Source: Gammaproteobacteria bacterium (GTDB lineage Bacteria > Pseudomonadota > Gammaproteobacteria > Steroidobacterales > Woeseiaceae). From it: a DNA stretch of 64,000 nt. The DNA lies in assembly GCA_009937505.1 (NCBI GenBank), contig JAACFJ010000006.1:4923-68922 (forward strand), in the 5' to 3' direction. Position numbers and translations under genes: made by a program. Shown one piece after another: positions 35,353 to 39,806 of the stretch; position 1 is the stretch's first letter, and each line of letters opens with the position of its first letter. Under the pieces are notes generated by a model. The model was not told where the DNA came from. It did no database searches and saw only the letters and a program-made list of their open reading frames with translations.

Positions 35353-36948
35353 CTAGTCCTGGCGCCAGACGAAGCCCAGCGAGTAGCGGCCGCGCTCGTA
35401 CTGGATGCGCGTGTCGTTCGACACGAAATCGTCGAAACGGCCTTCCAGCGCAACGCTGAACCGGGGCGTTATCCGGTAGCTGAGCGTGGCGTCCGCCCTG
35501 GCAGTTTCGAGAGTCTTGGTAGGCAGCAACGGGTTGTTGAACGCGAATGCGTTCTCGTAGTTGTAGTTGCGGTAATACCCGGAGAGCTCCAGGTCGAAGC
35601 GCGCGCCCGGGGACCAGTGAAACTCGAACTCGTAATGATCGCGGACGTAATTGCCATATCCGGCGTAACGGTCCTCACGATCGACACGTTCGTATTCGAA
35701 GCCGACCCACATGCTCCTGGTTATGCGTTGCCTCGCGAGCAGTGAAAGCCCGATGTAGTCGTAGCGAACGCCCTGGTTACCGATCGGCTGGGTGCCGTCA
35801 GGCTCGAAGGAGGGGCGGTCGCTGTACCGTCGGCTGAATTTTTCCGCCGTAACGCGCAGGAGCGACGTTTTCGTGAACGAATACTGCGTGTGAAGACTGA
35901 AGAGAAAATACTCGTGGTCGTACGACGGCACGACCTCGACATCCTCATAATCATACAGGTAGCCCTTGGCCACCAACCCGAGGGCGAGTTTCCCCCGGCG
36001 CTGACGGAAGCGGATATCCGGCCCATAGCGCGTGTAGTTCATGCGATCGCCGATATCCACGCCACCGACTGCCCGCGGCAGGCCGTCGTCGGGGTCGTAG
36101 TAGACACCGTCGCGCTGCGCGAAGCGGAAGGAGCTGAAGACTTCGCGCTTGCGACCCTCCTCCTTGCGGACGTACTCGTTGCCAACACGCAGCTCGTGCC
36201 GGAACTCGTCCGCGTCGCTCTGGTTACGGTCCTGGTAGTAATCGCCGGACGCGCGATACGCTGCGTAAAACCCTTCGAACCGGTAGGTATTGATTGTGTA
36301 TTTCGCGCCCATGTCGTAAGGAAGATAGCTGCCGGTCTGGGCCACGGGCACGATGAGCGGCAGGTTCGGGTTCGCGAAATCGATGTATGGCTCGGACGGT
36401 GAGCGAAAAACATTGGTGTCATTGCCGTAGCCGACACTGGCGAAGTAGCTGAAGTCGAAAATATCCCGTTCTTTTTGCTCTGCCACGCGCTGCTGGTAGA
36501 CGGGGTCTTCAGCGCGTTCGCCGCGCCGGATGCGCGCGATCGCGGTGCGGGCGAGGCCCGATAATTCCTCGCTGGTGCCCTGGTCGCGGGCGTAGCGGAA
36601 CCAGCCCAGCGCCTCGTCGTTATCGCCTAACGCGTAGGCATTCAGGCCGAGGTTGTAATGTGCGAGCTGCCGCAGCGATGGGGAGCGAGTCGCTTTCTGC
36701 AGCGACTCACGGGCCCGGATGTGCTGACCCGCTTTGTAATGCGCAACGCCGGTGTTGTAGTGCAGCAGTGGGGTGTCCATCCCTGCTTCGGTGGCCTGCC
36801 CGTAGCGCAACAGCGCAGCCCAGTAGAGGTCGTCACGAAACAGCCGGTTGCCATCTTTGAATAGATCCTCGGCGCTCATTGCGGCCGCGGTGCCGCTCGT
36901 GAGCAGGCACATCAGGGCGACTGCGACGGCTATGGTTCGCGCCGGCAT
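35353..36948 (-). CDS. Outer-membrane protein with an N-terminal TPR domain and a C-terminal beta-barrel (Slam/DUF560-like or PgaA/BcsC-like architecture; family not resolved)
   Basis: It has a signal peptide and about 130 aa of TPR-like helices (LYWAALLRYGQA..., HYNTGVAHYKAG, AHYNLGLNAYALGDNDEAL). About 370 aa then show alternating aromatic/polar beta-strand patterning, rich in Y, R, D and G. Confidence 0.6.
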   Translation of the reverse strand: MPARTIAVAVALMCLLTSGTAAAMSAEDLFKDGNRLFRDDLYWAALLRYGQATEAGMDTPLLHYNTGVAHYKAGQHIRARESLQKATRSPSLRQLAHYNLGLNAYALGDNDEALGWFRYARDQGTSEELSGLARTAIARIRRGERAEDPVYQQRVAEQKERDIFDFSYFASVGYGNDTNVFRSPSEPYIDFANPNLPLIVPVAQTGSYLPYDMGAKYTINTYRFEGFYAAYRASGDYYQDRNQSDADEFRHELRVGNEYVRKEEGRKREVFSSFRFAQRDGVYYDPDDGLPRAVGGVDIGDRMNYTRYGPDIRFRQRRGKLALGLVAKGYLYDYEDVEVVPSYDHEYFLFSLHTQYSFTKTSLLRVTAEKFSRRYSDRPSFEPDGTQPIGNQGVRYDYIGLSLLARQRITRSMWVGFEYERVDREDRYAGYGNYVRDHYEFEFHWSPGARFDLELSGYYRNYNYENAFAFNNPLLPTKTLETARADATLSYRITPRFSVALEGRFDDFVSNDTRIQYERGRYSLGFVWRQD

Positions 36949-37146
36949 GCCGATTCCAGGTTTATTGAGTGCGGCGGTAATTCGCTGAGTTTCCGTATCG
37001 CGTTATGTCAGATCGCCAAAATGCCCCATATTCGCCACGAAAACTATGACGTAGTGCAAGAAAATCCCCCTGGGTGGTCACCACCCAGGGGGATTGCTGC
37101 GGATTGCGCCTGATTTACGTCAGGCGGGAGGCTTTTCAGCGTGACA

Positions 37147-37725
37147 TCAATCGTCCGTTGGGTCGTCACCTTCCTCGCTTCCGTCATCGTCACCGAGGTC
37201 ATCTTCCATGTCGTCCTCGACGCCATCCTCTTCAAAGCCGGTGTCGTCTTCGGGCTCTTCTTCATCGCCCTCCATGTCGTCCTCTTCTTCGTCGTACTCG
37301 TCTTCCTCGATGTCTTCGCCTTCCTCGTGATCGTGCTCATCGTCATCGATCTCGTCGACATCGTCGATTTCTTCGTCACTCTCGAAATCGTCGTCCCGCC
37401 CGTCATCGAAGTCTTCGGCGTCGTCGTCGCCATCTTCGTCATCGAAGTCTTCGTCCTCGCCGGACTCGTGTTCCTCTTCATGCTCTGACTCGTCCTCGGA
37501 TTCATCGTCATCCTCGGGCTCGTCTTCGTCCCAGTCGTCCTCGTCGTCTTCCGGGCCCCGCATCTCGATCATCTCGTCAATGTCGTCATCGAGATCGCCG
37601 TCGTCATCGAGCACTTCCATCATGACGTCGAGATCGTCGAGGTCATCGTCGGCGCGCACGGCGGCCGGCAGGAACGCGAAACACGTCAGCACCAGGACCG
37701 CTATAAATACGTTGAAATGCTTCAT
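37147..37725 (-). CDS. Secreted, extremely acidic (poly-Asp/Glu) low-complexity protein
   Basis: A Sec signal (MKHFNVFIAVLVLTCFAFLPAAVRA) is followed by 167 residues. By my count about two-thirds of these are D or E, with only 2 Arg, no Lys and 4 His in D/E-H patches. It is co-directional with the ECF sigma/anti-sigma pair upstream and the TPR-barrel gene downstream. Confidence 0.65.
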   Translation of the reverse strand: MKHFNVFIAVLVLTCFAFLPAAVRADDDLDDLDVMMEVLDDDGDLDDDIDEMIEMRGPEDDEDDWDEDEPEDDDESEDESEHEEEHESGEDEDFDDEDGDDDAEDFDDGRDDDFESDEEIDDVDEIDDDEHDHEEGEDIEEDEYDEEEDDMEGDEEEPEDDTGFEEDGVEDDMEDDLGDDDGSEEGDDPTDD

Positions 37726-37772
37726 GGCTTTACTCCCTCAATTTCTTCCTGGACATCCAGTCCAGCCGTGAA

Positions 37773-38306
37773 TCAGGATACGTCGACCCGTAACCGGAAC
37801 GTCCGGTTGCGGTCGTCATGTTCGAGGCGGGCCAGCAGTTCGCCGCCGGCCGGCGTCAGTGCTATCAGCGTCAGCGGTAACAGGTTCTTGCCTTCCTGCA
37901 GGCTCGTCTCCCAGGTTATTTCGCGCTGCCCGGGGAAACCGGCCAGTTCGATGCCTTCGGGCAACGAGACCGTCAACGTTGCCGAGTCAAGCGCCTCGGC
38001 GGATGCGAATACCAGCCGCACGGTGTGTTCCTGTTCCATTGCGATGGTCACGCCGGGTATCGTGGGCGCTGCGTCCGGCAGCTGCGGCGTTGTCATCAGC
38101 ATCGCCGTAACTGCCCAGATCGCGAGTCCCGCCGCGATCGCGGAGCCGAAGCCGGCCAGTATCCAGCGATTGCGCTGACGGCGCGAGCCCTTGTGTACGG
38201 CACGCACGAGCGCCCGATCGTAGAATCCTGCTTCAGCTTCCGGCACCGTGTAATCCTTTAACAAGTCGAGGAGTTCCTGCTCCTCCATGTTGTCTCTGTT
38301 GTTCAT
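37773..38306 (-). CDS. Putative single-pass anti-sigma factor (non-ZAS)
   Basis: It lies immediately downstream of the ECF sigma gene (36-nt gap). It has a roughly 50-aa cytoplasmic N-terminus, one transmembrane helix (WILAGFGSAIAAGLAIWAVTAML) and a roughly 105-aa periplasmic domain. No HxxxCxxC motif is present. Confidence 0.55.
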   Translation of the reverse strand: MNNRDNMEEQELLDLLKDYTVPEAEAGFYDRALVRAVHKGSRRQRNRWILAGFGSAIAAGLAIWAVTAMLMTTPQLPDAAPTIPGVTIAMEQEHTVRLVFASAEALDSATLTVSLPEGIELAGFPGQREITWETSLQEGKNLLPLTLIALTPAGGELLARLEHDDRNRTFRLRVDVS

Positions 38307-38342
38307 CGCATTTGTCCTGTCTGATCCATTACACGCCAGTCA

Positions 38343-38882
38343 TCAGGAAATGGTTCCATCGTTTTCCAGGATTTGACGTAACCTCGCCCGGGCCCTGTGG
38401 AGCCGTGACTTGATGGTACCAACCGGGGTCCCCGTCATGCCCTCGATCTCCTCCAGCTTGTACCCCTCGGTGTCGTGCAGCAGAACGACGAGGCGGTGTT
38501 CCTCACTGAGTTGCTGCAGTGCCGCATCCAGCCGCCGGAATTTCTCCAGCCGTTCCCGGTCATCGACCGGATCGAGATCGCCGGCCAGGTCGGCAAGCCC
38601 CTGCCCCGGCAGATGCCCCTCGTCGACGAGGTGCATGCGCTGACGGGCAAAGCGGCGGTGTTGATCGACGAACTGGTTGTACATCACGCGGCACAACCAC
38701 GAGCCGGGTTCCTCGATATTGACGAGTTCGTCGAGCTTGCCGAATGCCTTGATCAGCAGCTCCTGGAACAGGTCTTCGGCTTCGGGCTTGGTGCCGGTGA
38801 GCCGCCACGCCAGCCGGTAAAGGCGGTCGAAATGCGGTCGCACCAGGCGTTCGAAAACCTCGGTTTGGTGTGGGTCGGTCAT
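38343..38882 (-). CDS. ECF (sigma-70 family, group IV) RNA polymerase sigma factor
   Basis: Region 2 reads FERLVRPHFDRLYRLAWRLTG...AEDLFQELLIKAF...YNQFVDQHRR. Region 4 reads LSEEHRLVVLLHDTEGYKLEEIEGMTGTPVGTIKSRLHRAR. The product is 179 aa from the internal ATG. Confidence 0.9.
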   Translation of the reverse strand: MTDPHQTEVFERLVRPHFDRLYRLAWRLTGTKPEAEDLFQELLIKAFGKLDELVNIEEPGSWLCRVMYNQFVDQHRRFARQRMHLVDEGHLPGQGLADLAGDLDPVDDRERLEKFRRLDAALQQLSEEHRLVVLLHDTEGYKLEEIEGMTGTPVGTIKSRLHRARARLRQILENDGTIS

Positions 38883-38963
38883 CGCACCGCTGAGTGTATA
38901 GCTACTGTCACCCCCTTCGGCAAGGACGTGTCCTGCTATTCTTGCAGAAAAGCAGCGGTTTTG

Positions 38964-39806
38964 ATGAAAACAAACACACTCATATTGACGGCGGCCGCCA
39001 TGATGGCTTTTGCTGCGAATTCGGTCCTGTGCCGGCTTGCCCTGGGTGCAGGGCTCATTGACGCGGCCAGCTTCGCCACGGTCCGAACGATCTCCGGGGC
39101 GGTCATGCTCGGCGCCATCCTGCTCCTGAGACGCAAGGCGGTAACCGCGAAACCGGACTGGCGTTCCGCGCTGACGCTGTATCTCTACATGGTGTTTTTC
39201 GCGTTTGCCTACCTGTCGCTGAGTGCGGGCACGGGCGCCTTGATCCTGTTCGGCGCCGTGCAACTGACGATGTTCACCATGGCATTGCGCTCGGGAGAAC
39301 ATTTCTCCGCCATATCCTGGGCCGGTCTGGTCCTCGCAATCGCGGGTCTCGTGTATCTCGTGTCGCCGGGCCTGACCGCGCCGGATCCGCTGGGTGCCGC
39401 CCTGATGACGATCGCCGGCATCTCCTGGGGTTTCTATTCGCTCGTCGGACGATCCTCGGGAGACCCGACCGAAGCGACCGCGCACAACTTCCTGTATGCC
39501 GTGCCGCTGGTGGTGGTGACGAACCTCGTATTCATCGCCGGCTTCGAGGTGACGGCTGCGGGTGCCGCCTATGCGGTCGCCTCCGGCGCTATCGCGTCGG
39601 GAATCGGCTACACGATCTGGTATGCGGCGCTAAAGGGACTGACTGGCACCGGGGCTGCCACGGTGCAACTCTCCGTGCCCGTCATTGCGGCCATGGGCGG
39701 GGTGCTCTTGCTGTCGGAAGCCGTGACGCTGCGCCTCATTGTCGCCTCTGCAGCGACCCTTGGCGGGGTGGCGCTCGTTCTCACCCAGAGAAACCGGTCG
39801 AGTTAA
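38964..39806 (+). CDS. DMT superfamily (EamA-like) transporter
   Basis: The product is 280 aa with about 10 transmembrane helices and two EamA-like halves. The ATG at 38964 lies inside the longer track ORF. Confidence 0.85.

Follow-up and report, generated by a model that had tools for sequence, protein, structure and literature searches.

Outer-membrane exporters that combine tetratricopeptide repeats (TPR) with a beta-barrel are known for polysaccharides, and Slam proteins are known for folded (lipo)proteins. To our knowledge, a conduit dedicated to polyanionic polypeptides has not been reported so far. Here, we analysed a 64-kb stretch of a Woeseiaceae contig (JAACFJ010000006.1; the whole stretch is called the window below) and a module of four genes on its minus strand, which encodes an extracytoplasmic function (ECF) sigma factor, a membrane-bound anti-sigma factor, a secreted polyacidic protein and an outer-membrane TPR-barrel protein. 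Our literature searches found this module nowhere described. An earlier sequence-only reading had proposed that the four genes form a cargo/exporter/regulator unit. We propose that the core of this unit is a cargo/conduit pair, consisting of a Sec-exported polyanion and a TPR-barrel exporter, and we give this reading a probability of about 0.5.

The closest described architectures are those of the synthase-dependent exporters. BcsC and PgaA, where the two parts are fused, and AlgK/AlgE, where they are split, combine periplasmic TPR with a 16-stranded barrel, and the AlphaFold2 (AF2) model of the window protein has the same design. With its periplasmic TPR domain and its barrel it falls within the range of 16-18 strands that characterises PgaA, BcsC and AlgE, and BcsC entries (9b8a, 9b8h and 6tzk) are among its top full-length Foldseek matches. 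Moreover, fused and split TPR/barrel forms occur among the synthase-dependent exporters as they do within the barrel family described here. Alginate is a linear, unfolded and anionic polymer, and the substrate proposed here would be likewise, but a polypeptide. However, the window barrel shows no sequence match to the PgaA and BcsC family models (TIGR03939, PRK11447), the template modelling (TM) scores are low (0.3-0.4), and among the neighbours of the module there is no inner-membrane polysaccharide synthase or glycosyltransferase synthase. BcsC, PgaA and AlgE export polysaccharide, whereas the proposed substrate would be a ribosome-made, Sec-exported polypeptide in the window and the product of an ATP-grasp ligase in a sister branch of the family. 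We propose that the architecture belongs with the TPR-barrel exporters of linear polymers and that its substrate would be a polyanionic polypeptide.

The Slam proteins in type XI secretion systems (T11SS) also have an N-terminal TPR part and a C-terminal outer-membrane barrel with a neighbouring cargo gene, in which they resemble the unit. It has been shown that the Slam barrel is 14-stranded, that T11SS cargo is targeted by a C-terminal 8-stranded TbpBBD barrel and that some T11SS cargo is soluble with a Sec (SPI) signal (PMC8406197). The sequence-only reading had considered Slam/DUF560 for the window barrel, and we found that the protein does not belong there: it has 16 predicted strands and not 14, the SlipAM model (DUF560, PF04575) finds no match in it, and the acidic protein carries no TbpBBD-type barrel. 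Four of 65 orthologues have weak SlipAM matches (best E 7e-6), which lie below the significance needed for family assignment. The targeting domain of T11SS cargo is C-terminal, whereas the conserved part of the acidic protein is N-terminal and its C-terminal part is low-complexity Asp/Glu.

Two further systems are related in part. RpoE-RseA-RseB and CnrYXH have the same order of sigma factor, single-pass anti-sigma factor and periplasmic third protein, and the anti-sigma factor of our module is homologous to ZAS-type anti-sigma factors; in contrast, the third protein here is a polyacidic disordered chain without similarity to RseB or CnrX, and the window anti-sigma factor is without the zinc-binding motif. 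The Rlo system (RloA, a retropepsin; RloB, an inactive transglutaminase with seven transmembrane helices (7TM); RloC, an ATP-grasp enzyme) concerns a Glu-rich envelope peptide and has the acidic theme in common with our module, which differs in that it contains no RloA, RloB or RloC and its polyanion is gene-encoded. In Pseudomonas aeruginosa, RloB and RloC were shown to share a pathway with secreted retropepsins that cleave poly-Glu, and Rlo is an osmotic-stress tolerance system that acts in the periplasm; the published rlo operon is without TPR or barrel genes (PMC12239564).

The acidic protein and its TPR-barrel neighbour

Woeseiaceae loci were fetched with the barrel protein as bait, and the gene order was judged where the contig was long enough. 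The order of sigma, anti-sigma, acidic and barrel gene is kept in all sufficiently long Woeseiaceae loci but two, which comprises about 70 genomes; the nearest loci come from Woeseiaceae metagenome-assembled genomes (MAGs) and show a barrel identity of 85-92%. In the two exceptions, L013 (4077-8593) and L055 (5388-8593), the acidic and the barrel gene lie between cyoE and uvrD, with no sigma or anti-sigma gene at the locus. Since cyoE and uvrD are themselves syntenic in the family, conservation within Woeseiaceae alone is uninformative and relatives were searched more widely. TPR-fused relatives in four other metagenomic contexts, with 27-36% barrel identity (L084, L086, L094/L095 and L096), have entirely different neighbours, among them sulfatase/peroxidase, FKBP/TonB receptor and amidase/SCO1. 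Those of their contigs that are long enough show a sigma factor, an anti-sigma factor with a zf-HC2 domain, an acidic protein with a Sec signal and a TPR-barrel protein in that order, and the short L096 contig holds the C-terminal part of the anti-sigma gene, the acidic gene and the barrel gene. The co-occurrence of the four genes across genomes was thus confirmed, and the comparison indicates that they co-evolve as a unit across five genomic contexts, with barrel identities of 30-36% to the window protein in the distant quartets. The acidic and the barrel gene were never found apart in the loci examined, and their persistence together in L055 and L013 without the regulators speaks for pairing them as cargo and conduit.

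The third gene had been described as encoding a Sec-exported protein with about two-thirds Asp/Glu in its mature part, and this agrees with our analysis: a signal peptide is followed by a mature part of 167 aa with 111 Asp+Glu (66%) and 2 Lys+Arg. The signal peptide is conserved in about 75 orthologues as MKQLNxFxAxLVLTxxAFxPAxARAD. A lipoprotein was considered and rejected, as the Cys is not conserved and the residue at -1 is Thr. Behind the signal peptide follows a conserved N-terminal module of about 45 residues. Of 75 orthologues, 67 have its VTM-type motif and 71 its EMRGP motif. The whole open reading frame (ORF) ranges from 118 to 260 aa in the orthologues, with an Asp+Glu content of 37-70% (about 40-60% in nearly all). 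Because the conserved N-terminal part varies little, the variation in length sits in the tail, near the end of which there are semi-conserved acidic motifs with aromatic residues, FEHDD and DFEDGEDVDDDEFDEE. The acidic protein matches no domain of Pfam or NCBIfam, and nothing in it is recognisable as a secretion domain.

The motif L[DE]VTM[EDH]V[LI][DE] is also present in the acidic proteins of the distant modules L084, L086, L094 and L096. These proteins have just the N-terminal motif in common (GLDVTMHVLDE, DLEVTMEVLDD, ELEVTMDIVED and ELEITIEVIEN), and their tails consist of other tandem repeats, such as DSDM in L086 (5257-5814) and DEPM/DEPV and EAREE in L094 (3856-4410). The acidic tail seems to be selected for its composition and renewed by repeat expansion, not kept in sequence. 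As the signal peptide and the N-terminal module are conserved, the comparison marks the acidic ORF as a real gene under selection. A conserved signal peptide and N-terminal module together with free turnover of the tail is the pattern that would be expected for a targeting module on a payload selected for composition.

As a separate observation, the motif L-D-V-T/M-M-E-V-L-D of the acidic protein (37600-37650) looks similar to I-P-G-V-T-M-T-L-E-E, the consensus of the anti-sigma factor's first conserved strand in the periplasm (38030-38075). The likeness may hint at strand competition, or it may be a coincidence between two strands that are both amphipathic.

The fourth gene encodes, in line with the sequence-only reading, a 531-aa protein with a TPR domain and a beta-barrel. 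The AF2 model has a mean predicted local distance difference test score (pLDDT) of 86.5, with helices at residues 26-163 and 16 beta strands at residues 164-530, and a TPR_16 match lies in the helical part; the Pfam models TPR_2 and TPR_1 score just under their cut-offs. Against Pfam and NCBIfam, the window protein is matched by TPR models only. Foldseek of the barrel against the PDB returned generic barrels (BcsC, AlgE, FadL, porins) and no specific family. Among 65 barrel orthologues, we found sub-threshold matches to BBP2_2 (PF10082) in 29, to MipA in 5 and to SlipAM in the four mentioned above. The best BBP2_2 match among them has an E value of 1e-5, distant relatives have faint or weak precomputed matches and the window protein has none. 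The family is probably a remote relative of BBP2_2 within the outer-membrane barrel clan; our literature searches found no function described for PF10082. We searched 1.84 billion cluster representatives exhaustively with phmmer, using the barrel part as the query (E <= 1e-3), and obtained 262 clusters; among the top 150 representatives 28 are TPR-fused and 65 are barrel-only (about 400 aa), the rest being fragments. By these searches, the family is small, unnamed and placed within the outer-membrane barrel clan. A match to a well-characterised family with an unrelated substrate would have spoken against the proposed unit, and none appeared in the Pfam, NCBIfam, Foldseek, orthologue and phmmer searches.

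A sister branch of the barrel beside peptide-ligase genes

The barrel-only relatives form a sister branch with a gene neighbourhood of its own. In all five loci that we looked up, the barrel gene ends the same tightly packed operon. Where the contig shows the genes whole and they were scanned, the operon encodes, in this order, an RloB-like inactive transglutaminase with 7TM, a RimK/RloC-like ATP-grasp enzyme that resembles glutamate ligases, a TPR protein and the barrel. The RloB-like membrane protein matches NF052267, and the ATP-grasp enzyme matches TIGR02291 (alpha-L-glutamate ligase-like) with an E value of 5e-77 and a score of 259, which is under the model cut-off of 314. The TPR protein is 625-641 aa long and consists entirely of TPR behind an N-terminal membrane anchor. 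PgaA and BcsC NCBIfam matches were obtained in this separate TPR protein only, and they come from the TPR repeats alone. The operon is found in other Proteobacteria; one of the five loci lies in a MAG named as Deltaproteobacteria. No homologues of RloB or RloC were detected by tblastn in the 64-kb window.

The operon looks like a variant of the Rlo system that is equipped for export, and a link of the barrel family to RloB/RloC-type operons is apparently unreported as far as we found. Judged from gene content, each of the two barrel branches would adjoin a source of polyacidic peptide for the periplasm, and each has TPR, either fused to the barrel or as a separate protein. Since both branches couple the barrel to TPR and to a supply of acidic polypeptide, they provide independent comparative support for the cargo/exporter idea. 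Tentatively, we extend this idea to the family as a whole, which may be an export route for polyanionic disordered polypeptides, that is, for gene-encoded poly-Asp/Glu with an L[DE]VTMEVLD[DE] module or for Glu-rich polymers built by RloB/RloC.

Cargo and conduit, and other roles of the acidic protein

In the mechanism that we propose, the product of the third gene would be an intrinsically disordered polyanion that crosses the inner membrane by Sec. Its N-terminal module of 45 residues may be a recognition or anchoring element, and the poly-Asp/Glu tail would be the functional part. The periplasmic TPR domain of the barrel protein would receive the acidic chain by binding the N-terminal module, and the chain may then cross or plug the 16-stranded barrel, which would pass it outward or display it at the cell surface. 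This would be analogous to the TPR-barrel exporters of linear polysaccharides (BcsC, PgaA, AlgK/AlgE), here with a polypeptide polyanion. The ECF sigma factor and the membrane anti-sigma factor, co-transcribed with the cargo gene, would decide on the timing of cargo production in response to a signal received by the anti-sigma factor. By means of a terminator between the two genes and a separate promoter/operator, the barrel would be expressed at a different, probably lower, level, which would set the ratio of cargo to conduit. In pilin operons, a hairpin after the gene of the abundant product and ahead of a machinery gene sets the stoichiometry, and a control of this type may apply to the terminator between the acidic and the barrel gene. 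Once exported, the polyanion could bind cations, control mineral nucleation, mediate adhesion to mineral grains or form a hydrated anionic coat.

Several points weigh against this reading. Export, surface display and metal binding are purely inferred. The charges that face the lumen of the barrel are mixed (27 Lys/Arg versus 20 Asp/Glu, estimated from strand periodicity), and the lumen lacks the clearly electropositive character of AlgE. Across the wider fused subfamily, no basic patch was found to be conserved in the TPR domain, and the conserved residues are those of the structural TPR signature only. In the sister branch, the TIGR02291 score lies below the cut-off and the link to poly-Glu is itself inferred. 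Finally, the acidic gene is co-transcribed with the sigma and anti-sigma genes and not with the barrel gene in the window lineage, which would also suit a regulatory role.

Such a role could be that of a periplasmic partner of the anti-sigma factor. The acidic protein would use its N-terminal module to bind the anti-sigma factor at its beta-rich domain in the periplasm, and its polyanionic tail would be the sensor for cations, polyamines or cationic peptides, with the barrel as a member of the regulon or as the entry point of the signal. ECF operons often hold a third, periplasmic regulator, as is the case for RseB in rpoE-rseA-rseB and CnrX in cnrYXH, and almost every Woeseiaceae locus has the acidic gene only about 12-47 nt behind the anti-sigma gene, with the terminator placed before the barrel gene. 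Moreover, the resemblance of the acidic motif DLDVTMEVLDD to the anti-sigma strand IPGVTMTLEE could allow strand exchange or competition between the two proteins. Nevertheless, we regard this role as unlikely. The acidic and the barrel gene occur in L055 and L013 with no sigma or anti-sigma gene at the locus, they are spaced as one operon in L094 and L096, and in the sister branch the partner of the barrel is peptide-ligase machinery and not a sigma factor. Moreover, free turnover of two-thirds of the protein, both in its sequence and in the type of its repeats, would be surprising for a sensor.

We regard as equally unlikely a purely periplasmic role, in which the acidic protein would stay behind the outer membrane as a fixed-charge polyanion, like the anionic osmoregulated periplasmic glucans. 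It would set the Donnan potential, the hydration or the buffering of divalent cations as the salinity changes, the barrel would serve as a channel selective for cations or as a valve for release, and the amount made would be tuned by the ECF system. The plain Sec signal without a recognisable secretion domain, the marine-sediment hosts and the tie of the sister branch to the Rlo system, which confers osmotic-stress tolerance in the periplasm, would all fit such a function. Yet it leaves the constant TPR partner of the barrel unexplained, although TPR is present in both branches and is a hallmark of exporters that handle polymers, and it gives no account of the conserved N-terminal module. A buffer protein also needs no dedicated barrel, yet the pair was never apart in the loci examined. 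It is highly improbable that the four genes have no functional relation, or that the acidic ORF is spurious, and that the adjacency reflects only local cyoE-uvrD synteny in one family, because the quartet recurs with wholly different flanks and the acidic protein keeps both its signal peptide and its N-terminal motif at 30% barrel identity, even though cyoE and uvrD are likewise syntenic inside Woeseiaceae.

With the acidic protein as cargo and the barrel as its conduit, the cargo/exporter/regulator unit proposed by the sequence-only reading survives in part. The co-occurrence of the four genes and the comparative support from the sister branch speak for it, whereas the barrel is no member of Slam, the genes do not form one simple operon in the window, and the sigma and anti-sigma genes are missing at the locus in two genomes.

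If the cargo/conduit reading is true, polyanionic polypeptides would be a new substrate class for envelope secretion. If it also holds for the barrel family as a whole, no synthase-dependent-like exporter before this one would have had a peptide as its substrate, and the orphan RloBC pathway would gain an exit route and a testable product. Ribosomal and non-ribosomal (ATP-grasp) routes to the same kind of polymer would be linked, which would also point to the product of the Rlo pathway; this pathway is clinically relevant in Pseudomonas and Vibrio. The hosts of the module come from marine sediment, and Woeseiaceae rank among the most abundant bacteria on sand grains and in marine sediments. 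They would own a regulated anionic surface polymer, through which they could bind Ca, Mg, Fe or Mn, attach to grains, or either inhibit or start the nucleation of minerals. With four genes the unit is small, and it could be tested by reconstitution in E. coli.

Regulators, control signals and gene layout

The ORF list reproduces exactly the coordinates that had been given for the four minus-strand genes (Table 1), and between the genes lie 36, 47 and 198 nt, in agreement with the earlier reading. Apart from the TPR_16 repeat match of the barrel protein, the sigma factor alone among the four products falls into a curated family above cut-off. In the window, the module is flanked by CyoE, SURF1/COX and EamA on one side and by UvrD and TrkA/TrkH on the other.

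Table 1. Features of the four-gene module in the window, with sister-branch operons given by locus and position
Feature	Position	Strand	Basis
ECF sigma factor gene, 179 aa	38343-38882	minus	Pfam and NCBIfam matches
Candidate sigma-70-like promoter of the sigma gene: TTGCCG (38918-38923), TATACA/TACACT (38893-38900)	38893-38923	minus	consensus resemblance only
Single-pass anti-sigma gene, 177 aa	37773-38306	minus	homology to zf-HC2-bearing orthologues
Acidic protein gene	37147-37725	minus	signal peptide and conserved N-terminal module
Sec signal peptide, aa 1-25, AxA-type, cleavage site AVRA|DDD	37651-37725	minus	conserved in about 75 orthologues
Conserved N-terminal module DDxLDDLDVTMEVLDD..DLDDxIxEMRGPDDD..W, about 45 residues	37516-37650	minus	orthologue alignment
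Polyacidic, presumably disordered tail and stop codon	37147-37515	minus	composition
Intrinsic terminator after the acidic gene: 12-15 bp G+C hairpin and AUUUUCUU	37058-37092	minus	folding and comparison
Conserved boxes upstream of the barrel gene	37001-37052	minus	alignment of Woeseiaceae loci
Box A, ACGTCATAGTTT	37041-37052	minus	invariant or nearly so
-10-like TAnnnT/CATTTT between box A and box C	37018-37023	minus	
Box C, CTGACATAACG	37001-37011	minus	invariant or nearly so
Outer-membrane TPR-barrel gene, 531 aa	35353-36948	minus	AF2 model, Pfam TPR_16
Periplasmic TPR domain and linker helices, aa 24-163	36460-36879	minus	Pfam TPR_16 above cut-off, AF2 helices
16-stranded beta-barrel domain, aa 164-531, and stop codon	35353-36459	minus	AF2, pLDDT mostly >90
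Sister-branch operons	L089:269-5889; L091:1548-7236; L092:1-5577; L093:3-5005; L097:3625-9203		

In the window, the four genes are not one simple operon: a strong, conserved intrinsic terminator and a set of conserved DNA boxes split the acidic gene from the barrel gene. A simple promoter/terminator scan listed neither the terminator nor the promoter-like sites, and both were defined by comparative alignment and folding. The 107-nt stretch with the terminator folds at -48.2 kcal/mol (z = -5.5), and nearly all Woeseiaceae loci have a T-run behind a C5-6…G5-6 type hairpin, whose inner stem sequences vary from locus to locus. Hairpins 3' of the acidic gene are also present in L084 and L086. As the acidic and the barrel gene are just 31-35 nt apart in L094 and L096, the terminator is a feature of the lineage and not a defining one.

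In 57 of 80 loci, boxes A and C show little or no variation and are spaced 39-42 nt, and each occurs once in the window. The 198-nt gap was also examined for an RNA element: no Rfam match was found in it at E <= 1 and none at the gathering threshold window-wide, and RNAalifold on 22 diverse gaps gave neither structure nor covariation. Because of the lack of an Rfam match, of a conserved RNA structure and of covariation, the boxes were taken as DNA-level signals, and we read the region from box A to box C as the putative promoter/operator of the barrel gene. A canonical ECF promoter (GGAAC-N16-CGTC) and a sigma-54 promoter were rejected, as neither agrees with the spacings. A TAnnnT -10 element between the boxes with a poor -35 element fits best, which would imply dependence on an activator. 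The boxes hold a 4-bp inverted repeat (GTCA…TGAC) and are absent from the distant modules.

The first gene was confirmed as an ECF sigma factor. Sigma70_r2 matches residues 13-77 (E 7e-12), Sigma70_r4_2 matches residues 116-168 (E 3e-15) and TIGR02937 (sigma70-ECF) gives 83.7 bits over a cut-off of 42.9, all three past their cut-offs. The protein has the layout of the ECF (group 4) sigma factors, with the sigma-2 and sigma-4 domains only in about 180 aa and without region 3 or region 1.1, and the cognate anti-sigma gene lies 36 nt downstream, as is typical for this group. In the NCBIfam scan no equivalog model reached its cut-off, and no named ECF group was assigned. The identity to the sigma factors of the distant modules L084, L086 and L094 is 54%. 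Mechanically, the sigma ORF extends to a GTG at 39485; since this extension overlaps the divergent plus-strand EamA gene and all sigma orthologues begin at a Met of the MTDPHQ type, the true start is the ATG at 38882.

In 28 Woeseiaceae loci, an arrangement CTTG-N19/22-TACACT precedes the sigma gene. The -10-like hexamer stops about 10 nt short of the ATG and a Shine-Dalgarno sequence is absent (38880-38923). The position of the candidate promoter suggests that the sigma mRNA is leaderless or nearly so. The divergent EamA gene has its start codon no more than about 15 nt from the -35 element of this candidate. ECF-like motifs (GGAAC-N16-GTC and GAATC-N17-CGTC) were found upstream of the sigma gene in the distant modules only, at L084:3856-3879, L094:2592-2617 and L095:2120-2145, about 25-55 nt ahead of the sigma start; the pattern is loose and chance matches are possible. 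The same loose search found no ECF-type promoter motif upstream of the sigma gene in the window module.

The second gene encodes a single-pass membrane anti-sigma factor, as had been proposed from its position, with a cytoplasmic part of 48 aa, one transmembrane helix and a periplasmic part of about 105 aa, which contains a conserved, beta-rich domain of about 100 aa. The window protein matches no Pfam or NCBIfam family, and the HxxxCxxC motif of the ZAS-type (zf-HC2) family is absent, as the protein begins after that segment. Orthologues with an N-terminal extension of about 35 aa match zf-HC2 (PF13490) above cut-off (E 3e-8). The HxxxCxxC motif is present in the anti-sigma factors of L015, L018, L038, L060, L077, L078, L083, L084, L086 and L094. 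Three of these were scanned directly and match zf-HC2 with E values of 3e-7 to 3e-8 (L060, L078 and L083), and recorded Pfam matches place the domain in L084 and L086 (weak) and in L094. The zf-HC2 anti-sigma factors of the distant modules are 46-49% identical to the window protein, and full-length alignment with zf-HC2-bearing orthologues (46-57% identity) shows that the window protein retains the remaining cytoplasmic helices and the single transmembrane helix. A profile search gave a weak match to RsiW (E 0.024). The homology identifies the protein as a ZAS-derived anti-sigma factor, whose zinc-finger helix would have been lost in the window lineage while the last cytoplasmic helices were retained. 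Because the sigma gene is only 36 nt away, the segment is truly lost and not mis-called. A homologue search queried with the anti-sigma factor returned near-identical Woeseiaceae proteins only, and AF2, run on an alignment of sequences of >=86% identity only, gave a low-confidence model (pLDDT 39.7).

The short form without zf-HC2 is common to most Woeseiaceae, as seen when the window (38200-38306) is compared with deeper-branching orthologues. Opposite the acidic gene, two plus-strand ORFs of 183 aa and 115 aa (37074-37625) are by-products of GA-rich codon repeats and not separate genes.

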